From Candidatus Omnitrophota bacterium (GTDB lineage: Bacteria; Omnitrophota; Gorgyraeia; Aquiviventales; Aquiviventaceae): a DNA stretch of 64,000 nt. The notes under the pieces were generated by a model, which had not been told where the DNA came from, made no database searches, and was given only the letters and a program-made list of their open reading frames with translations. Of this stretch, positions 3,904 to 63,988 are shown piece after piece (positions within the stretch are counted from its first letter, which is position 1; every line of letters begins with the position of its first letter). Location: positions 6,067-70,066 of the forward strand of contig JAHFGV010000005.1 of the NCBI GenBank assembly GCA_023247255.1, written 5' to 3'. The position numbers and the translations under genes are program-made.

Positions 3904-5816
3904 AGATGCTTTTGTGGATTCCAGGCCTGCCTTTGTTGGCCGCTGCGATATTGCTGCTCGTTGGCAGACGCTTGGGACGCTGGAGTTCTCATGTGGCGAT
4001 TGCCGCCATGAGTGGTTCGGCGGCGTTGGTCTTCTTGATAGGGAGCTGGATTCTCGATGGTCATCGGTTAGGGGTGCGCTGGATATGGTTGTCCGCGCAA
4101 AAGCCACAGTGGTCGCTGGGTCTGGCCGTCGACGGATTGAGCTGGATCATGCTCGTTGTCGTTACCCTGATCGGTACGATGATTATGGTCTACTCAGTGG
4201 GCTACATGCACGCAGACGCACGGTTCAGTCGGTTTTTCGCCTACCTGTGTCTTTTCTGTGCTTCCATGCTGGGGTTGGTGATGGCCGATCATTTTTTACT
4301 GCTCTATGGCTGCTGGGAGCTCGTCGGGCTGTGTTCCTATTTATTGATCAGCTTCTGGTTTGAAAAGCCGGCTGCAGCCGCCGCGGGCCGGAAGGCTTTT
4401 ATCACGACTCGCATTGGGGATACGGGGCTGTTGCTGGGCATCTTTCTCTTAGCCCTGACGGTTGGCGATCTTCGTCTTCAGAATCTGGAAGTTATCCGTG
4501 CGCAGTTGAGCGAACGTTCCTGGCTCTTGACTCTGATCAGTACATTGATTTTTGTGGGAGCCATGGGCAAGTCCGCGCAAATTCCTCTTCATGTCTGGCT
4601 GCCGGATGCGATGGAGGGTCCGACTGCCGTATCCGCCCTCATCCATGCAGCGACGATGGTAGCGGCCGGGGTGTATCTTGTGGCGCGCAGTTTTGTTTTG
4701 TTCACCCCGCAGAGCCTCCAGGGGGTGTTGATCGTCGGACTGCTTACCCATCTTTTGGCCGGGACCGTCGCCCTGACGATGACCGACATCAAAAAGGTCC
4801 TGGCCTACTCGACCATCAGCCAGTTGGGGTTGATGATGACGGCCCTGGGTCTTGGGGCGCAGGCGGCGGCGATGTTTCACCTGTTCACTCATGCGTTCTT
4901 CAAGGCACTTTTGTTTTTGGCGGCCGGCAGCGTCATCCATGCTACCCATCAACAGGATCTTTCCCAGCTCGGTGGACTCTTCCGAAAGATGCGCGCGACG
5001 GCGATTTTGTTTCTCATCGGCGTTCTGTCGATGAGCGGTTTTCCCTTTCTGAGCGGATTCTGGAGCAAGGATGCAATCTTGGCGGCTGCGTTACACGATG
5101 TGCCGGCGCTCTTCTGGACGTTACTGGCTGGGGCGGTTTTGACAGCGAGTTATACATTCCGGTTGTTTCTGCGGTGCTTTCACGGCGAGTCGGCAGACGC
5201 AAGAGGGCACACAGCACACAGCGTGCATGAATCGCCGGCTATCATGCTTATACCCATGGCGGTCTTGGCTCTTGGAGCGGTCTTCGCCGGTCTTTTAGGA
5301 TCGCCGTGGCTGCATCAGCCGATCTTTCATCTGCTCGGTTCAAAACGCCTGCATGAAGGGATCGATGTGCCGATTTTGCTTTTGTCGAGCGGCGCTGTGG
5401 CTGTCGGATTCGCTCTGGCGTGGCTTTCGGGTTTCAAACGCCAGCTGCACCTGCCTGAATCCTTGCGTCCGTTGGGTCAATTTTTCTATCGGCTTTCGGT
5501 GAACAAATACTATGTGGATGAGGCTTATGACCGCTGGATCGTTCAGCCGTTTCAAGCAGCGACCCGCCGATTGTCCCAGTTTGATCAGCGCGTCATTGAT
5601 GGCAGCGTCAATGGGGTCGCCGAGTTGGGCTGGAAGCTCGGTCAGGGGAAAGAGCGTTTTGACGCCAAGGTTATCGATCGGCTCGTCAACGGCATTGCCA
5701 GTTCCACGCGCCGGATGGCGATGGGGCTTCGGCTGATTCAAACCGGTGTGATTCAAAACTACCTGCTGGCTGTTGTGGTCTCAGTGGTTGTGTTCGCCTG
5801 GCTGTTGCGTCCATAA
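3900..5816 (+). CDS. nuoL: NADH-quinone oxidoreductase subunit L
   Basis: 638 aa with WELVGLCSYLLISFW, TRIGD and GKSAQIPLHVWLPDAMEGPT. Confidence 0.9.
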   Translation: MKMLLWIPGLPLLAAAILLLVGRRLGRWSSHVAIAAMSGSAALVFLIGSWILDGHRLGVRWIWLSAQKPQWSLGLAVDGLSWIMLVVVTLIGTMIMVYSVGYMHADARFSRFFAYLCLFCASMLGLVMADHFLLLYGCWELVGLCSYLLISFWFEKPAAAAAGRKAFITTRIGDTGLLLGIFLLALTVGDLRLQNLEVIRAQLSERSWLLTLISTLIFVGAMGKSAQIPLHVWLPDAMEGPTAVSALIHAATMVAAGVYLVARSFVLFTPQSLQGVLIVGLLTHLLAGTVALTMTDIKKVLAYSTISQLGLMMTALGLGAQAAAMFHLFTHAFFKALLFLAAGSVIHATHQQDLSQLGGLFRKMRATAILFLIGVLSMSGFPFLSGFWSKDAILAAALHDVPALFWTLLAGAVLTASYTFRLFLRCFHGESADARGHTAHSVHESPAIMLIPMAVLALGAVFAGLLGSPWLHQPIFHLLGSKRLHEGIDVPILLLSSGAVAVGFALAWLSGFKRQLHLPESLRPLGQFFYRLSVNKYYVDEAYDRWIVQPFQAATRRLSQFDQRVIDGSVNGVAELGWKLGQGKERFDAKVIDRLVNGIASSTRRMAMGLRLIQTGVIQNYLLAVVVSVVVFAWLLRP

Positions 5817-5826
5817 ATTCCGCAGT

Positions 5827-6325
5827 TTTTAGCAGGATGCTAAAAGACCCACGGGATGCTAGAGTGCCTAACATAATGATCGCATGGTCGCGCTGGGCGT
5901 AATTGCTTCGATGCGCAAGACGCCAGGAGGAAGCCGTACTGATCCATAGAAGTACGGTGACGACGAGCAACGCAGCGCGGCGAAGCAATTCCGCCCAGCC
6001 CTTAGGGTTGCACTGAAAGATGGCCATCTGCTGCGTCGTTCCTCCTCGGCGTAGCGCTCCTTCGGCTACGCCTTCGTCGTCACTCCTTGCATCTGGGCCA
6101 TCTTTCAGTGCAACGCGGCCATGTGCTCATTATGTTAGGCACTCTTAGGCTGCTCAAAAAGGTGCGAGATGCAAGGCGCAGCTCGATTCGGCTGAGTCCT
6201 TTGACTATCGCTCAGGACTCAGCCCTGAGCAACGTCGAAGGGCTGAGGAGGCGCGTACTTTCAAGTACGCTGACGAAGCCGTCAGGCATACAACGCAGCA
6301 GATGTGTCTTTTTCAGCAGCCTGCT
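5827..6325. repeat. multi-hairpin structured spacer (nested inverted repeats)
   Basis: Outer inverted repeat 5861-5893 / 6117-6149, containing an 18-nt perfect core. Inner inverted repeats 5894-5911/5982-5999 (17/18) and 6009-6026/6097-6114 (18/18). Further hairpins lie at 6193-6286. The spacer is bounded by the similar motifs TTTTTAGCAGGATGCT (5827) and TTTTTCAGCAGCCTGCT (6309). Confidence 0.6.
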
Positions 6326-9676: not shown

Positions 9677-10073
9677 CGCATTCATTCGACGACTGTGGCG
9701 CTTGGGCAGTACCCTCTTGTTAGTCAGTGGAGGGCTTGCCGGTTCTTTTTACGGTATTCGGGGTGCGCTCGGTGTGCTCTCAGGAGGGTTCTGGAATTTA
9801 ATCAACCTCTGGTGCCTTCAGAATTTGCTCAACGCTTGGTTAGGCACTACGCGCTCTACCCGTCGAGTTGTGGGGTGGATAGTGCTTAAGTTCTTATTCC
9901 TCTATGGGCTCGTAGTGCTCCTGTTGCGCCATCCAGCCATTTCCCTCATGGGGTTTGGTATTGGGTTTACTATTATATTGATCAGCGCCATCGGTATCTT
10001 TGCGGTCCAAGCAAGGGGTTTGATTGTCACTGTTTCCCAAGCAGGTCCCGGTGCAGTCCGTGGCTATCGCTGA
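9669..10073 (+). CDS. atpI: ATP synthase protein I-like membrane protein
   Basis: 134 aa, about 4 TM helices, positioned between atpZ and atpB. Confidence 0.5.
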   Translation: MGDAFIRRLWRLGSTLLLVSGGLAGSFYGIRGALGVLSGGFWNLINLWCLQNLLNAWLGTTRSTRRVVGWIVLKFLFLYGLVVLLLRHPAISLMGFGIGFTIILISAIGIFAVQARGLIVTVSQAGPGAVRGYR

Positions 10074-21126: not shown

Positions 21127-22193
21127 TAGATCTGTTGCACAATTGCCCAATTTGTAGCATCCTATCCTTAACGCAGAGGAGGAACAAAGGCATGCTACGA
21201 TTTGCCAAACTCGTGCACCACCCGAGGAAACTCTACAGAATGACGGGACTTACGCTTGACCAGTTCCAGACGCTGACGAATCGGCTCACCCCGCTGTGGG
21301 AGCAAGCGGAACGGATGTGCCTCTCGCAGCGCAAGCGAAAGCCACGCCATCGGGAAAGAGTACCAAGTACAAGCTCTCCACGATGGCGGACAAACTCCTG
21401 TGCGTGCTCAGCTTCTACCGCTTCTACCTCTACCTTTGAGCTGCTCGGCTATCTCGTCGGCCTGGATGCCAGCAATATCTGTCGGCTAAAGCCTCGGCTC
21501 GAACCGCTCATTGAGCAGGCAGCCGATCCAAGCCTGGGGCTGTCGCTCCGCCGTCGGCTCCCGCCCGGCGTCAAGAGAATCGGCACCTGGGAGGAACTCG
21601 TGGAGCGCTGTCCGGACTTCGCAGACGTGGTCACTGATGCGACCAAGCAGGCACGACTCCGTCCACCGCGACGCACCCAGCGGCGCTGGTACTCCGGCAA
21701 ACGTAAGCGCCACACACTCAAGACGCAGTTGAGCATCACTCGGCAGAGTGGCCGGATCCTCCATATCAGTTCAACCGTCCCGGGCCGTGTCCATGACTAC
21801 GCGCTCTTGAAGCGGACGCGACTGGACGAACGGCTGCCGCCGAAGACGCGCCTCACCCTGGATCGGGGGTATGATGGTGCCATGACGGACTATCCGACTC
21901 CCGCTATCGCGCTGCCCGTCAAGCGTCGAGGCAACCACCAGGTCCTGACGCGCTCGGAGCGGGCATTCAACCGCCTCCAGGCGCGGCAGCGGATCATCGT
22001 GGAGCATGTCCCAAGTTGCGTGAAGAAGTACCAGCTCCTCGCGCAGGTCTACCGCCACCGGATCGCGGACTACAACCACCGCTTTCGCAACATTGCGGCC
22101 TTGACGAACTTCCGCCTAACGCCGACGGTGACGTAACCGAACCCGGACGCGCGGAGCCTTCATCGTGTCAAGGGCAACTGCGCAATAGGTCTA
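21127..22193 (+). mobile_element. IS element (IS5/Harbinger-type DDE_Tnp_4 transposase)
   Basis: Imperfect terminal inverted repeats: TAGATCTGTTGCACAATTGCCC (21127-21148) against the reverse complement of 22172-22193 (about 17/21). One transposase ORF lies inside. Confidence 0.7.
21192..22136 (+). pseudogene. DDE_Tnp_4 transposase with compensating frameshifts
   Basis: ATG 21192 follows GAGGAGG. Core motifs DATKQARLRP, YSGKRKRHTLK, PGRVHDY and DRGYDG are present. The family-typical segment KYKLSTMADKLLCVLSFYRFYL is readable only in the +2 frame between about 21350 and 21431. Confidence 0.6.
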
Positions 22194-23768: not shown

Positions 23769-23842
23769 GGGGGCGTAGCTCAATTGGTTAGAGTGGCGGC
23801 CTGTCGAGCCGTAGGTTGCGGGTTCGAGCCCCGTCGCCCCCG
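23769..23842 (+). tRNA. tRNA-Asp (anticodon GTC)
   Basis: Acceptor GGGGGCG/CGCCCCC, D-arm GCTC..GAGT, anticodon loop CTGTCGA, T-loop TTCGAGC. Confidence 0.9.
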
Positions 23843-24164: not shown

Positions 24165-24193
24165 TTGACGGTTGTGGCGCGTAGGCGTATTCT
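24165..24193 (+). promoter_or_regulatory. sigma70-like promoter candidate for the Crp/Fnr gene
   Basis: TTGACG (24165-24170), 17-nt spacer, TATTCT (24188-24193). This would give a near-leaderless transcript for ATG 24201. Confidence 0.3.
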
Positions 24194-24200
24194 TCATGAG

Positions 24201-24875
24201 ATGGGTGACGAACCAAGAGCCTTCATGGGCCAATTCCTCTCTCGTATGGAGCCTTTCAGACGACTCAGCCAGGCTGAACGGCTACGGCTTGCTGCTGTCG
24301 CCCGTGAGAAACGCTATGACAAAGGCGACACCATCTTCCGCGCAGGTCAGCCAGCCGATGCCGTCTGCGTCGTCAGAGAAGGCCGCGTCCACTTGATGAA
24401 ATTTCTCGAAGGCGGGCAGGCGTCCACGACGTGCGTCATGACGCCCGGGGAAACGTTCTGTTGTCTGCCGGCGCTTGACGGAAAACCGTACCCCGTGGAT
24501 GCCGTCGCTGCAGTGGACTCCACGGTCATTTGCATTCCTACCAGCGCCTTCCATGAGCTCCTGCGCAAGAACCCCGCGTTCCTCCAAGACTCACTCTGCC
24601 TCTTCTGCGATCGGCTGCGCCAGGTCGAGGACAAGAGTTGCATGACCTACGACTCCGTCGAGCGGCGGCTGGCCAAATCACTCCTCATGCTCTCAAAGAA
24701 GTTCGGCCCGACGATTCCGCTGACCAAACAGGAGCTGGCCGAGCTGGCCAATACCACCCAGGAGACCACGATCCGAATTTTAAGCCAACTGAGCAAGCAA
24801 GGGGTGATTCGTTCCGCCCGCGGGAAAACCACGATCCTGCGCCCAGAGAAGCTCTCCGCCTTCCTCGACCCGTAA
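24201..24875 (+). CDS. Crp/Fnr-family transcriptional regulator
   Basis: ATG 24201. cNMP-binding-like barrel (YDKGDTIFRAGQPADAVCVVREGRVHL) plus a C-terminal HTH (LTKQELAELANTTQETTIRILSQL). No N-terminal Cys cluster. Confidence 0.8.
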   Translation: MGDEPRAFMGQFLSRMEPFRRLSQAERLRLAAVAREKRYDKGDTIFRAGQPADAVCVVREGRVHLMKFLEGGQASTTCVMTPGETFCCLPALDGKPYPVDAVAAVDSTVICIPTSAFHELLRKNPAFLQDSLCLFCDRLRQVEDKSCMTYDSVERRLAKSLLMLSKKFGPTIPLTKQELAELANTTQETTIRILSQLSKQGVIRSARGKTTILRPEKLSAFLDP

Positions 24876-24882
24876 GCCCTTC

Positions 24883-24896
24883 CTGACGGACGTCAT
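24883..24896. promoter_or_regulatory. Crp/Fnr-type dyad site 1
   Basis: CTGAC-GGAC-GTCAT, followed by AGAA. Confidence 0.45.
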
Positions 24897-25043
24897 AGAA
24901 ATCCTCTAGACCGCAAGGTATCGTTGCGGGTAGCCACGTCACAGAGGAGGTGACTCCGTCGGTTTTGCAAGACTACACTCATTGGACGACGAGGAGTTGC
25001 GGAAGCCTCCAAGGGAGATCCCACGCAACTCCATCATAATGAC

Positions 25044-25057
25044 ATGACGTACGTCAT
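25044..25057. promoter_or_regulatory. Crp/Fnr-type dyad site 2
   Basis: ATGAC-GTAC-GTCAT, a perfect 14-nt palindrome. TACAGT lies at 25080-25085. Confidence 0.5.
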
Positions 25058-25107
25058 AGAAGGATTCCCTGTTGAGCGCTACAGTTAGATATGAAAGGAG
25101 GCGCAGG

Positions 25108-25761
25108 ATGAACGCGGTCGAGCGTCTGCGGCGGGATCACACGATCCTCAGAGCCAAGCTGAGCGTCTTGGAAGGGGCGCTGACCATGGGGTCGGAGACA
25201 TGGTTCGTGCTCCGGGAAATTTGCCACGCGCTCTCTCGCCAGCTCCAGGATCACATCAAACGTGAAGAGGAGCTGGTCACGGCGTGCAAAGAAGCACTGC
25301 CCGACGACGTGCTGGCCCATCTCACCGTCGGGCATAAGGACGAGCCTGCGTTGCTGCGGACGATCAACCGGCTGTTTATCGAGGAGCAGGGGCATTCTCT
25401 TGCGAGCATCAGGCCGTCGTTGACGAGGCTCATTCTCGGCCTGCGTGGTCACATGGACGAAGAGGAGGCCGAGTTGTTCCCGGCGATTGAAGGGGTCCTG
25501 AGCGACCATGAAGCAGCGGAGGTTCAAGAGCCGCTTCCGCCTGTCAGGCTGCGCGAGGAGATGACGGTCAACCATGTACTCCATACTTACCCGCAAACCA
25601 AACCACTCCTTGAACGGCTCTTCATCAACGTTCCGTATGAGGGCTACGACTGCCTAGATGAAGTCGCCTGGAGACGGGGAATGGACTGCTGCCAATTCAT
25701 CGGGCTGCTTGAGGAGGCGATCAGCGTGGCGTACCACTGTGATGAGATCGTAGCAGCATGA
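25108..25761 (+). CDS. hemerythrin-domain protein with DUF1858/ScdA-N-like C-terminal domain
   Basis: ATG 25108 follows AAAGGAGG. H/E-rich HHE pattern (RRDH, LQDHIKREEE, HMDEEEAELFP). C-terminus reads MTVNHVLHTYPQTKPLLERLF. Confidence 0.65.
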   Translation: MNAVERLRRDHTILRAKLSVLEGALTMGSETWFVLREICHALSRQLQDHIKREEELVTACKEALPDDVLAHLTVGHKDEPALLRTINRLFIEEQGHSLASIRPSLTRLILGLRGHMDEEEAELFPAIEGVLSDHEAAEVQEPLPPVRLREEMTVNHVLHTYPQTKPLLERLFINVPYEGYDCLDEVAWRRGMDCCQFIGLLEEAISVAYHCDEIVAA

Positions 25762-34550: not shown

Positions 34551-34627
34551 GCCTGCCCGCCTGTCGTCCAAAAGTGTGATCTGGGTCATAGTTCGTCTCC
34601 CTGCGTTCTGAGAAGATTACTTAGGCG

Positions 34628-39820: not shown

Positions 39821-39834
39821 ATGACGTTCGTCAT
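39821..39834. promoter_or_regulatory. Crp/Fnr-type dyad site 3
   Basis: CC-ATGAC-GTTC-GTCAT-GGAAGA. Confidence 0.5.
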
Positions 39835-39929
39835 GGAAGACTCTTATCCGGAGCCGCTATCCTCTTTTTCATGACACATCCGTGAATCACGGCTACAAAT
39901 GGCCGACTTGCTGACGATAAGGTCGTTTC

Positions 39930-39960
39930 TCACAAAGTTCACACCCTGTGAACATTGTGA
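39930..39960. promoter_or_regulatory. 31-nt near-perfect palindrome (operator or hairpin candidate)
   Basis: TCACAAAGTTCACA-CCC-TGTGAACATTGTGA. Arms are 13/14 complementary. Confidence 0.35.
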
Positions 39961-40157
39961 GAGGTACGTTACCGTCGACGAAGCGTGAAATTCCCGCCAG
40001 GTTTGCAACGGAGCTGTCCGGGAAGCGAGGCCGCTCCGACGAGACAGCGGTTGCCTTCGAACTCAATGTTCCCGGTTCCGTACGGTTTTGCAACACTTCT
40101 CGCTCCGCCATCGACGAGGAGCAGCGTAACTCAGACGCGATTCAGGACATAACACAG

Positions 40158-43308: not shown

Positions 43309-43322
43309 ATGACTCCCGTCAT
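43309..43322. promoter_or_regulatory. Crp/Fnr-type dyad site 4
   Basis: CC-ATGAC-TCCC-GTCAT-GGAAGA. Flanks are identical to site 3. Confidence 0.5.
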
Positions 43323-43581
43323 GGAAGAGCCTAGAGCAGATGCTGTAGGCTTTGATGTGCAGATGGACACAGTGACGGTCCGTGAGAAAATTAAGCGGCT
43401 GAAGACTACTCGACAGGCGCTGAGCTGGTCCGAGGAGGTCTGTGCCTATCACCTGGGCGTGACGTACTCGACCTTGAACCGTTGGGAGCGCGGCGAGTCC
43501 TTGCCGAAGAGCCGCGCGGTGCTCAAAGCGATTGACCAGTTCATTGCCCGGCACAGCAAGGAACAAGTCGGAAGGAGGTAA
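43309..43581 (+). CDS. XRE-family helix-turn-helix protein
   Basis: HTH sequence [29 protein letters not shown]. The track ATG at 43309 is part of the dyad, so ATG 43363 is the more likely start. Confidence 0.55.
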
Positions 43582-52801: not shown

Positions 52802-53172
52802 CGCGCGAAGACGCAAATGCGACGAACGGCGAAATCAATCGGCGCACGTTTCTCGCCTCGGCGCCTCGGCACCTGCTGGACGGGCTGAGAGCGCTGATGA
52901 GCGATCTCAGAGGGCTCTCGCCGCCTGTCTTGGATGACCAGGCATGGCCGCTTCCTCGAAAGGTGGCGATGCTGGATGTCTCGCGGTGTCTCGCGTGGGG
53001 AGGAGGGGGCTGTCAGGTGTGTTATCTCCGGTGTCCCCTGCGTGAGCGTGCGATGGTGTTTGAGGATGGCAAACCAACGGTGGTGGCTTCCATGTGCGAC
53101 GGCTGTGGTGTCTGTGTCGAGGCGTGCGAAGCCGTCAATGACCTTGGAGCGATGACGCGTGTGAGTGTATGA
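52798..53172 (+). CDS. TAT-signal 4Fe-4S ferredoxin-like protein
   Basis: ATG 52798 overlaps the upstream stop. NRRTFLAS, then the Cys clusters CLAWGGGGCQVCYLRCP and CDGCGVCVEAC. Confidence 0.6.
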   Translation: MTREDANATNGEINRRTFLASAPRHLLDGLRALMSDLRGLSPPVLDDQAWPLPRKVAMLDVSRCLAWGGGGCQVCYLRCPLRERAMVFEDGKPTVVASMCDGCGVCVEACEAVNDLGAMTRVSV

Positions 53173-53182
53173 CGCGCGTCAG
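53169..53182. promoter_or_regulatory. Crp/Fnr-type dyad site 5
   Basis: ATGAC-GCGC-GTCAG (9/10). TAGGGT lies at 53204-53209. Confidence 0.4.
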
Positions 53183-53347
53183 GGTTCTTTGGGGTGTGAT
53201 CGCGTAGGGTACGTGGTGGGATGACAATTCGAAACGACGCTCCGAGTTCAGCGACCTAAGCTCGCGTGATGGCGGGGATGGTCCCTGAACCCCTGTCCCA
53301 CACGCAACGCCGCGTGTAGGACCGGGCCGGGAAGGAAACGACTCGGC

Positions 53348-53432
53348 CTCCTCGTGTTCGGAAAGGAGACGGCAGGCTGGAGTATCGTCAAGCCAGCTTC
53401 TCTTTCCACACGAGGAGCTGGCTTGTTTCGTC
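53348..53432 (+). promoter_or_regulatory. leader RNA with alternative stems (attenuator or riboswitch candidate)
   Basis: Stem CTCCTCGTGT (53348-57) / ACACGAGGAG (53408-17) competes with the terminator-like stem AAGCCAGCT (53390-98) / AGCTGGCTT (53416-24), which is followed by GTTTCGT. Confidence 0.3.
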
Positions 53433-53450: not shown

Positions 53451-53732
53451 ATGCAGGAACAACGTGTGACGCTCTGGTGCAAGGTGTTGGGTCGGCTGGT
53501 TGAGGTGGTCATCGCCAGGAATCACCATGCCCAGCCACCAGTCCCAGGGGTCCCTGAAGGCTGGAAGGTAACGGAGTGTCTGGAGAAAGACACGCCGTGT
53601 TTTGGCAAGGGCTGTCCGTTCACTACGGATGGTGGAGAGTCCCCCTTTGGGGAGGCGGGCGAGCTGCCCGATCTCTCCTCTGAGTCGTTCGATCCGCTCG
53701 CTGAACCAGGGTCTGAGGGAAAGGGTAGTTGA
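53451..53732 (+). CDS. hypothetical 93-aa protein
   Basis: Track ORF only. Cys-containing core (WKVTECLEKDTPCFGKGCPF) with an acidic tail. No family recognised. Confidence 0.3.
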   Translation: MQEQRVTLWCKVLGRLVEVVIARNHHAQPPVPGVPEGWKVTECLEKDTPCFGKGCPFTTDGGESPFGEAGELPDLSSESFDPLAEPGSEGKGS

Positions 53733-62468: not shown

Positions 62469-62482
62469 ATGATCGCGGTCAT
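62469..62482. promoter_or_regulatory. Crp/Fnr-type dyad site 6
   Basis: CC-ATGAT-CGCG-GTCAT-GG (9/10), in the divergent desaturase/cupredoxin-like spacer. GACAAT lies at 62505-62510. Confidence 0.4.
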
Positions 62483-62532
62483 GGTCAGGGCCAACGGCGA
62501 TGGAGACAATCTTTCCGAGAGGAGGATCTTAC

Positions 62533-63255
62533 ATGCGTAGAAACGCTTTACTGGTCGTGGGGGTTGCGGTTGGGATGCTCGGTATCCAACCGGCGGATGC
62601 GGCGGAAGGAGAGGGTGTGGGAGGGACGATCGCCGGGCAGGTGCAGTTTGCAGGAACACCGCCGGCCCGCGCGCCGGTGAAGATGAGCGCGGATCCGACC
62701 TGCCAACAGAAACACGCAGAGCCGGTATTGTCAGAGGACGTTATCGTCAACGATAACGGAACGCTCCGCAACGTGTTCGTCTACGTCAAGGAGGGTCTGG
62801 CTGGATCATTTCCACCATCCACCACGCCCGTTGTGCTAGATCAAGATGGTTGCCGCTATCGACCGCGGGTGGTAGGCCTGCAGGTAAGCCAACCGCTGGA
62901 AATCCGCAATAGCGATTCGACGTTGCACAACGTGAACGCCAAACCCAGCACCAACAAGCCCTTCAACCTGGCTCAGCCGGTGCAAGGAATGAAAACCACC
63001 AAAACCTTCAGCTCTCCAGAAGTGATGGTGGAGTTCAGATGCAACGTCCATCCATGGATGCGGGCCTATGTCGGTGTGGTAGCGTACCCTTTCTTCGCGG
63101 TGTCGGATGAGACCGGCGCATTTGGTATCTCCGGCCTGCCGGCGGGGAGCTACACGCTCGAGGCCTGGCACGAGGTCTACGGCACGCAGTCCCAGACGGT
63201 CACGGTGGCGGCGGGCCAGAGTGCGTCTGTCACGTTTTCGTTTTCCGCCAACTAA
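62533..63255 (+). CDS. secreted cupredoxin-like plus carboxypeptidase-regulatory-like domain protein
   Basis: ATG 62533 follows GAGAGGAGG, then a signal peptide. CNVHPWMRAYVGV and GISGLPAGSYTLEAWHE. Confidence 0.5.
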   Translation: MRRNALLVVGVAVGMLGIQPADAAEGEGVGGTIAGQVQFAGTPPARAPVKMSADPTCQQKHAEPVLSEDVIVNDNGTLRNVFVYVKEGLAGSFPPSTTPVVLDQDGCRYRPRVVGLQVSQPLEIRNSDSTLHNVNAKPSTNKPFNLAQPVQGMKTTKTFSSPEVMVEFRCNVHPWMRAYVGVVAYPFFAVSDETGAFGISGLPAGSYTLEAWHEVYGTQSQTVTVAAGQSASVTFSFSAN

Positions 63256-63283: not shown

Positions 63284-63297
63284 ATGATCTCCATCAT
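63284..63297. promoter_or_regulatory. Crp/Fnr-type dyad site 7 (FNR-like variant)
   Basis: ATGAT-CTCC-ATCAT-GGAAG. TATTAT lies at 63320-63325. Confidence 0.4.
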
Positions 63298-63340
63298 GGA
63301 AGTCCTGGAGGGATAGTTGTATTATGTGAATTTAGCGTAA

Positions 63341-63988
63341 ATGAGCATGGGGGCGTTTCCGAAAGAGACCGCGCCTCTTGAACAGACGGAGGTACGGCGA
63401 ATCGGTCCGGACCTCTACGCGGAGGCTCTGAACCGATTCCGGACGTTGCTTGAGCGCGCACAGCGCTGCGGCCTGCCGGAACCGACGGCCATAACGCTGG
63501 CAACGACCGATGGCCAGGGATACCCATCGGACCGGACCGTGCTGCTGAAAGCTGTCGATGAGCGAGGCTTCGTGTTCTACACGAGCCTGGCGAGCCGGAA
63601 GGCGCGACAGCTTGCCGCCAATCCACAGGCCGCACTGTGCTTCTTCTGGCAACCCCTCATGGAGCAAGTGCTGGTTGAAGGGGCGGTCGAGCAGGTCTCT
63701 GACGAGGAAGCGGATGCGTATTGGGCGTCCCGGCCACGCACGCACCAGCTTGGCGTCTGGGCGTCGTGGCAGTCCAGTCGGTTAGACGGTCCGAGGACCC
63801 TGGACCTGCGTTGGGTGGAGCAAGCGCTGAGATTCTTGGGGCAGCCGGTGCCGCGGCCCGCCTATTGGAGAGGATTTCGCGTCGTGCCGCACCGTATCGA
63901 GTTCTGGAAACGTCGCGCGGCTCGCTTGCACGAGCGCGTGTACGAACGGCACGAGGCTCAGTGGACCAAAGCGTGGCTTGCTCCATGA
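63341..63988 (+). CDS. pdxH: pyridoxamine 5'-phosphate oxidase
   Basis: 215 aa with PSDRTVLLK, FVFYTSLASRKARQL, RIEFW and HERV. Confidence 0.85.
   Translation: MSMGAFPKETAPLEQTEVRRIGPDLYAEALNRFRTLLERAQRCGLPEPTAITLATTDGQGYPSDRTVLLKAVDERGFVFYTSLASRKARQLAANPQAALCFFWQPLMEQVLVEGAVEQVSDEEADAYWASRPRTHQLGVWASWQSSRLDGPRTLDLRWVEQALRFLGQPVPRPAYWRGFRVVPHRIEFWKRRAARLHERVYERHEAQWTKAWLAP

Follow-up and report, generated by a model that had tools for sequence, protein, structure and literature searches.

The 64,000-nt stretch of contig JAHFGV010000005.1 from a Candidatus Omnitrophota bacterium considered here (positions 6,067 to 70,066; hereafter the window, whose own numbering is used) encodes a regulator of the CRP/FNR family, named reg1, and carries seven copies of a short inverted repeat, or dyad, that probably mark a set of activator-dependent promoters. 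The reg1 open reading frame (ORF) lies directly 5' of the best of these dyads; its product is 100% identical to the protein labelled P0001, and given that its homologues are 216-218 aa long, ATG 24225 is taken as the true start. Downstream follows a gene for a hemerythrin-domain protein, then hemA and genes for multihaem cytochromes, a cytochrome b and ResB/CcsA proteins (assigned by Pfam). The remaining dyads stand before feoB; before an XRE-family helix-turn-helix (HTH) gene heading an NXR/NAR-like cluster that encodes a cytochrome c/EB_dh subunit, a 1207-aa molybdopterin oxidoreductase, an iron-sulphur (Fe-S) subunit and a NarJ-like chaperone; before a molybdenum cofactor (Moco) riboswitch followed by an ORF for a 93-aa Cys-rich protein and by moaA, moaC, mog and moeA; before the gene at ATG 62533, for a secreted protein with a CarboxypepD_reg-like domain (Pfam); and before pdxH.

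The dyad, ATGAYNNNNRTCAT (ATGAY-N4-RTCAT), is strongly over-represented in the window: five exact matches were found against 0.21 expected, a count of at least five arising in none of 100 shuffles, and with one mismatch allowed there were 13 matches against 5.9 expected. The seven gene-proximal copies all lie on the + strand, each just 5' of, and facing, a gene start or the riboswitch. Six other one-mismatch matches lack a TANNNT-like hexamer at 27.5-31.5 bp from the dyad centre; five of them are inside ORFs, and the sixth, at 34576 between two cytochrome genes, was considered as a site and, having no hexamer at the right offset, treated as a chance match. The core, TGA-N6-TCA, is typical of CRP/FNR sites, and its symmetry suits a CRP/FNR dimer. 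In a logo of 38 aligned sites, TGA and TCA are invariant and the consensus extends to TCTATGAY-N4-RTCATAGA, the full pattern being T-c-t-A-TGAY-N4-RTCA-T-A-G-A-a, about 18 uninformative positions and TAnnnT. The TCTA/TAGA flanks are weakly symmetric, the promoter-proximal TAGA being better conserved than its distal mirror, a bias that would fit a double constraint imposed by the regulator and by region 4 of sigma.

A first-pass annotation of the window had claimed a constant spacing between five of these dyads and hexamers resembling a -10 box, and all five pairs are indeed present. The spacing is expressed here as the offset from the dyad centre to the first base of the hexamer. Three hexamers said to begin at exactly +29.5, TACAGT (25080), GACAAT (62505) and TATTAT (63320), do begin there. 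Two had been placed within 1 bp of that value: TAGGCT (43346) does lie at +30.5, whereas TAGGGT starts at 53205 rather than 53204, and hence exactly at +29.5 and not at the +28.5 implied. Every site named was real; those at 24883 (+29.5) and 39821 (+30.5) had been missed. With these included, all seven gene-proximal dyads have a hexamer, five at +29.5 and two at +30.5. TANNNT is rare, matching at 0.5% of window positions, and the probability of finding it at one given offset in at least four of seven dyads is 2e-8, or at two offsets in at least six of seven, 7e-12.

Since the offset was chosen after the window had been viewed, the independent test came from related loci, namely 17 genome contigs encoding a reg1 orthologue and four contigs encoding the HTH gene (L019-L022; L numbers denote collected loci). 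In the 17 loci alone, TANNNT was found at +29.5 in 25 of 47 TGAY-N4-RTCA cores and at +30.5 in five (P = 5e-42). Window and 17 loci together gave 27 and 8 of 61 cores, respectively, over a flat background of 0-3 at each other offset from 10 to 80, and the four HTH-gene contigs contributed twelve further promoters of the same geometry. The genes downstream belong to roughly ten different families. About 20 related contigs thus keep the spacing, while the sequence of the spacer varies between non-orthologous sites; a spacer that holds no information at a distance that is fixed implies that dyad and hexamer are conserved separately, and not as one repeat. A negative control was drawn from 80 metagenome loci collected with the 62533 protein, which also supplied the close orthologues L023 and L024: in 336 kb of loci, mostly of other lineages, encoding homologues of that protein, none of 30 cores had TANNNT at +29.5. 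It might still be argued that the spacing is a coincidence born of a loose hexamer definition, or the trace of a dispersed repeat element; GACAAT falls outside TANNNT, a hexamer had been misplaced by one base, and the offset was picked after looking. The rarity of TANNNT, the P values from the window and from the independent loci, the lack of a +29.5 peak in unrelated lineages, the orientation of all seven sites towards a gene start or the riboswitch and the unconserved non-orthologous spacers, which rule out a repeat element, led us to reject both as scarcely credible. A composite scan for further sites in the window (up to two core mismatches with TANNNT at +29.5 or +30.5) gave 19 hits against about 16 expected; the new ones were unconvincing, and none was added to the seven. 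The features concerned are collected in Table 1.

Table 1. Regulator genes, candidate dyad promoters and associated features of the window; offsets run from dyad centre to first hexamer base.
Feature	Position	Strand	Details
Predicted ordinary sigma-70-type promoter of reg1	24165..24193	+	TTGACG-17-TATTCT, without dyad; consensus scan
reg1, CRP/FNR-family regulator	24225..24875	+	216 aa; Pfam cNMP_binding and HTH_Crp_2
Candidate promoter A	24883..24924	+	Dyad CTGACGGACGTCAT (24883-24896); TATCGT 24919-24924, +29.5; drives only the reg2 remnant
reg2 remnant ORF	24950..25039	+	29 codons; GTG 24950, TAA 25037; homology to L017/L001 ends after codon 4
Candidate promoter B	25044..25110	+	Dyad ATGACGTACGTCAT (25044-25057); TACAGT 25080-25085, +29.5
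Candidate promoter B, gene side		+	GGAGG 25097-25101; ATG 25108 of hemerythrin-domain gene, then hemA
Candidate promoter C	39821..39863	+	Dyad ATGACGTTCGTCAT; TATCCT 39858-39863, +30.5; leader ~326 nt; feoB ATG 40196
Candidate promoter D	43309..43365	+	Dyad ATGACTCCCGTCAT; TAGGCT 43346-43351, +30.5; ATG 43363, 72-aa XRE-family HTH gene
Candidate promoter E	53169..53210	+	Dyad ATGACGCGCGTCAG, one mismatch; TAGGGT 53205-53210, +29.5
Moco riboswitch aptamer	53228..53385	+	Rfam RF01055, 61.6 bits (gathering score 36)
Candidate promoter F	62469..62535	+	Dyad ATGATCGCGGTCAT; GACAAT 62505-62510, +29.5; AGGAGG 62520-62525; ATG 62533
Candidate promoter G	63284..63343	+	Dyad ATGATCTCCATCAT; TATTAT 63320-63325, +29.5; pdxH ATG 63341

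Individual promoters recur in the relatives. The orthologue of promoter B at L001 9721 has an identical TACAGT at +29.5 and an identical 22-nt gap to the ATG, a dyad with TAGAAT at +29.5 stands 5' of DUF2934-feoB in L021, and the arrangement of promoter D, at +30.5, is found again in L019-L022. In L006 (4798/4809) and L021 (4698/4709), a single dyad is flanked on both sides by -10-like hexamers at +29.5 or +30.5 that face divergent genes; one regulator dimer may thus serve two promoters, and such two-sided hexamers suit a symmetric activator. In L021 another dyad, at 4648, lies 50 bp from the first.

What lies at the -35 position of the dyad promoters is a poor match to the sigma-70 element. 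The logo reads T(A/G)GAAn there, with three of six matches to TTGACA, and a consensus scan of 24800-25200, between the regulator and hemerythrin genes, returned no promoter. The promoter of reg1 itself, in which no dyad is seen, is of the ordinary type (Table 1). A single consensus match of this kind is not significant alone, six having been found in the scanned region against 3.3 expected; TTGAC(C/G)-17/18-TAnnnT was also found 5' of the reg1 orthologues in L001, L003, L004, L005, L006 and L009, and the recurrence of TTGAC(C/G) before reg1 and its orthologues indicates that the lineage uses a normal -35 box where the dyad is absent.

The seven sites are best read, and with good probability, as class II-type activator-dependent sigma-70 promoters controlled by an uncharacterised subfamily of the CRP/FNR regulators. 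An offset of 29.5, or three helical turns, corresponds to a dyad centred at -41.5 when the hexamer occupies -12 to -7, which is the classic arrangement of CRP/FNR-type activators. A CRP/FNR-family dimer would bind the dyad, centred at about -41.5 (-42.5 at two sites) and lying over the defective -35 region, and would recruit RNA polymerase to the TAnnnT -10 box, transcription then beginning 6-8 nt past that box. From this geometry we infer activation rather than repression, together with transcription starts (±2) at about 24931, 25092, 39870, 43358, 53217, 62517 and 63332. For promoter E, with its TAGGGT at 53205, the predicted start falls about 11 nt before the Moco riboswitch. The window regulon would comprise the hemerythrin-domain gene with hemA, feoB, the XRE regulator, the riboswitch-controlled Moco genes, the secreted protein and pdxH, probably joined by the genes beyond hemA for the multihaem cytochrome and for cytochrome c maturation. 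That the spacing is the one expected of an activator centred near -41.5 had been proposed in the first-pass annotation, and it has gained support from the neighbouring regulator gene, the conserved spacing, the poor -35 region, the position of the riboswitch and the leaderless ATGs described next.

Of 49 dyad promoters in the relatives, 12 are followed, 5-8 nt after the hexamer (mode 6), by the ATG of an ORF of 60 aa or more, as against 3.5% of all other TANNNT hexamers (P = 9e-8). Examples are L003 2507, L003 5039, L009 7786, L011 4844, L015 2559(-) and L022 1835, among others, and the reg1 promoters of L006 and L009 are likewise of the leaderless type. Leaderless genes therefore appear to be common in the lineage, as judged from these gaps; if transcription starts at the A of the ATG, a gap of 6 nt means a dyad centred exactly at -41.5. 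Other promoters, among them those before ATG 25108 and ATG 62533, form a second group with a hexamer-ATG gap of 22-29 nt that contains GGAGG.

The predicted transcription starts had been taken to favour two downstream start codons and a very short leader for pdxH, and each of these proposals found support. ATG 62500 sits upstream of the -10 hexamer, whereas ATG 62533 has AGGAGG 7 nt upstream and opens a product beginning MRRNALLVVGVAVGMLG... with a signal peptide. The 85%-identical orthologue in L023 keeps the dyad, with GAGAAT at +29.5, and lacks an in-frame ATG where the window has 62500; other homologues of the protein begin at the equivalent of 62533, after GGAGG. Similarly, ATG 43363 rather than 43309 was indicated for the HTH gene. 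It corresponds to M19 of the long ORF, which is invariant in 36 homologues, about half of them called from M19. In L019, L021 and L022, the ATG within the dyad lies 55, 61 and 55 nt upstream of the M19 equivalent and out of frame, and L019 has an in-frame TAG between the two. The conservation of the N-terminal extension (MT.VME...AVGF) is apparent only, as what these residues reflect is the dyad and the -10 box, GTAGGCTTT, read as codons. Before pdxH, three orthologues have the dyad, nAnnnT at +29.5 (TATTAT, CATCAT and GATCAT, the latter two forms being those carried by L023 and L024) and a constant 15-nt gap to the ATG, which implies a leader of about 9 nt devoid of a Shine-Dalgarno sequence. 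Two mis-called start codons are thereby corrected; the cause of both errors is that the motif begins with ATG or lies just 5' of one.

In the window, as in each of the 17 genome loci, a CRP/FNR gene adjoins a dyad, and reg1, a paralogue named reg2 and the hemerythrin-domain gene are conserved neighbours in most of them. In eight loci (L001, L003, L005, L007, L008, L010, L017 and L022) the place between reg1 and the hemerythrin gene is taken by reg2, which encodes 220-250 aa, has its own dyad promoter and is often leaderless. Comparison of window 24884-25039 with L017 220-1008 and L001 8934-9723 revealed that reg2 has been deleted at the window locus: positions 24884-24961 match L017 220-297 at 96% identity, and in L017 the gene behind this promoter encodes a CRP paralogue of 240 aa (reg2). 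What the window has kept is the promoter, the leader, the Shine-Dalgarno sequence and codons 1 to 4, after which homology stops. The protein that binds the dyad is most likely reg1 and possibly reg2; reg1 is favoured because sites persist without an adjacent reg2 and because its recognition helix is nearly invariant.

Several points weigh against the proposal as a whole. The offset is measured to a hexamer and not to a mapped start. The promoters of the related loci are partly orthologous (reg2 in eight loci, the HTH gene in five), and the 49 are hence not independent. Promoter E is the weakest site, with a mismatch and the flank GGGT instead of AGAA, and the Moco riboswitch of L019 has no dyad upstream, site 53169 not being conserved there. 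The hexamer of site 62469 begins with G instead of T, a departure conserved in L023. Moreover, a site overlapping the -35 region could equally serve a repressor, and reg2, itself dyad-controlled in eight loci, could be the real binder.

The first of these last two alternatives would make the dyad the operator of a repressor, of the CRP/FNR or another family, that blocks RNA polymerase over the -35 region of otherwise constitutive promoters. The dyad does overlap the -35 position, and a second palindrome over the -10 box of the HTH gene suggests that repression does occur in the region; some promoters are repressed by CRP/FNR proteins, and where FNR represses, its sites are found anywhere between a position 5' of -35 and the start of transcription (PMC3688515). 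Repression, however, needs no spacing held to the half base pair, and 35 of 61 cores have the hexamer at two adjacent offsets. The poor -35 (three of six), set against the TTGAC(C/G) of ordinary promoters, implies that the dyad promoters would be weak without an activator, and in places one dyad stands at the same offset from each of two divergent promoters. A repressor is accordingly regarded as improbable, and activation as the preferred reading.

The second alternative, that reg2 or both paralogues in a cascade bind the dyad and that reg1 is not the direct regulator of the window targets, is less easily set aside and is judged unlikely rather than improbable. It draws on the place of reg2 between reg1 and the hemerythrin gene, behind a dyad promoter, in eight loci, and on the sequence E-T-x-I-R common to the recognition helices of reg1 and reg2. 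Yet seven intact sites remain in the window, where reg2 is deleted at this locus; dyads stand beside reg1 without an adjacent reg2 in L002, L006, L009 and L011-L016; and the recognition helix of reg1 is nearly invariant across orthologues of 50-100% identity. These observations favour reg1 as the direct binder.

Assignment of reg1 to an established class was attempted without success, as no NCBIfam model reaches its cut-off. The weak best hits were FixK, FtrB and FnrL, all far below (FixK, 53.7 against a cut-off of 300). It is not FNR proper, the oxygen-sensing [4Fe-4S] regulator, which has a fourth cysteine near residue 122 besides its N-terminal cluster; reg1 has no N-terminal cysteines and an Fnr score of 37.8 bits against a cut-off of 228; nor is it CRP (46.2 bits against 266). 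Its best solved relative is the Thermus CRP 4EV0 (E = 4e-21), and opposite the R-S-A of that structure, which we take to be the cAMP phosphate-binding residues, reg1 has Y-P-V. Four cysteines, Cys70, Cys78, Cys79 and Cys138 (context TTC-VMTPGETF-CC-LPA ... KS-C-M), are invariant in 14 orthologues down to 52% identity and absent from reg2, and two of them take the place of residues in the cassette that binds the cAMP phosphate. These properties suggest that reg1 represents an uncharacterised CRP/FNR subfamily with its own cysteine pattern, in which a cysteine-bound cofactor or a redox switch is plausible. Cys70, Cys78 and Cys79, which would line the beta-roll ligand pocket occupied by cAMP in CRP, and Cys138, at the hinge of the C-helix, could hold an Fe-S cluster or a metal or act as a redox switch; the signal, like the identity of the binding paralogue, is something we infer. 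More tentatively, and as a possibility only, reg1 may define a new sensory class of the family that forms a two-tier cascade with reg2 and the hemerythrin-domain protein and has largely leaderless targets. Such a reg1/reg2/hemerythrin cascade would switch on genes for haem, the molybdenum cofactor, iron uptake and NXR/NAR-type respiration.

The arrangement is like that of class II promoters activated by Escherichia coli FNR (narG, dmsA, nirB, nrfA), with a 5-N4-5 inverted repeat, a TGA...TCA core and a position near -41.5 overlapping a weak -35 element, and the regulon themes overlap also (molybdoenzyme, molybdenum cofactor); in E. coli, feoAB and moa are under FNR control. The half-site differs, being ATGAY with an AGA flank here and TTGAT for FNR, and reg1 lacks the N-terminal Cys-X2-Cys-X5-Cys of FNR and has E-T-T-I-R in its recognition helix, the recognition motif of FNR being E--SR. 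A further difference from E. coli FNR is the many leaderless target mRNAs predicted in relatives of the window. At FNR-activated promoters of E. coli, 19 of 23 sites lie within 4 nt of -41.5, variants at -40.5 and -42.5 included, and a nitrate-reductase-type molybdoenzyme, the molybdenum cofactor and anaerobic respiration are among the tabulated targets (PMC3688515). In contrast to the window dyad, with four bases between its half-sites, CRP sites have six (TGTGA-N6-TCACA). The fold family and the class II position are nevertheless shared with CRP at galP1 and with the Thermus thermophilus CRP (PDB 4EV0); galP1 and the targets of Thermus CRP/SdrP are of class II. The boxes of the proteobacterial FixK, FnrL and Dnr-Anr proteins (TTGA-N6-TCAA) likewise have N4 spacing, a TGA core and respiratory targets. 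They differ from the dyad in the outer bases of the half-site, and the lineage here consists of uncultured groundwater metagenome-assembled genomes (MAGs) labelled Planctomycetales or Omnitrophota. No description of the regulator or of the dyad motif was found in the literature searched.

What is new, then, is the ATGAY half-site with its TAGA flank, the reg1 subfamily and its cysteines, the uncultured host lineage and the frequency of leaderless targets. Class II activation by a CRP/FNR protein is a textbook mechanism, and the regulon prediction is accordingly solid but unsurprising; it is of value for annotation and draws attention to what may be a new cysteine-based sensor, but brings no new principle. 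The regulon points to a respiratory, redox, cofactor or iron programme and is testable for a lineage known only from metagenomes; it covers cytochromes, an NXR/NAR-like molybdoenzyme, the synthesis of haem and of the molybdenum cofactor, the uptake of ferrous iron, and pdxH. The form of the ordinary promoter, TTGAC(C/G)-17/18-TAnnnT, and the frequent leaderless mRNAs should also help in annotating related MAGs.

Several other features were observed near the promoters. The second palindrome of promoter D, CCTA(C/G)AGCA-N2-TGCTGTAGG, spans 43330-43349 between the dyad and the -10 box of the XRE-HTH gene, overlapping the latter; it is perfect in L019 and kept in five of five orthologues (in L019-L022 at about 9965-9985). 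It is probably the operator of the HTH protein itself, mediating autorepression, a reading that would explain why the spacer of promoter D, unlike the others, is conserved. The 93-aa ORF after the riboswitch (53451-53732) has no Pfam or NCBIfam match, and weak homologues of it were seen in L002 (18507), downstream of a dyad promoter, and close to sites in L006 and L008. The feoB leader (about 326 nt) contains no convincing ORF and has no Rfam match even at E = 1. Within it, at 39928-39962, is a 35-bp near-perfect palindrome, TCTCACAAAGTTCACA ccc TGTGAACATTGTGAGA, with 16-nt arms that are 94% complementary; it may form an RNA hairpin or serve as the operator of the DtxR/FeoA-type regulator whose gene follows feoB. 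Upstream of the reg1 locus and just before it is a tRNA-Asp gene (23769-23842), itself preceded at about 1.6 kb by a DDE_Tnp_4 transposase gene (21135-22136), and at 24 kb the GC content of the window steps up, from about 54-56% to 58-62%.

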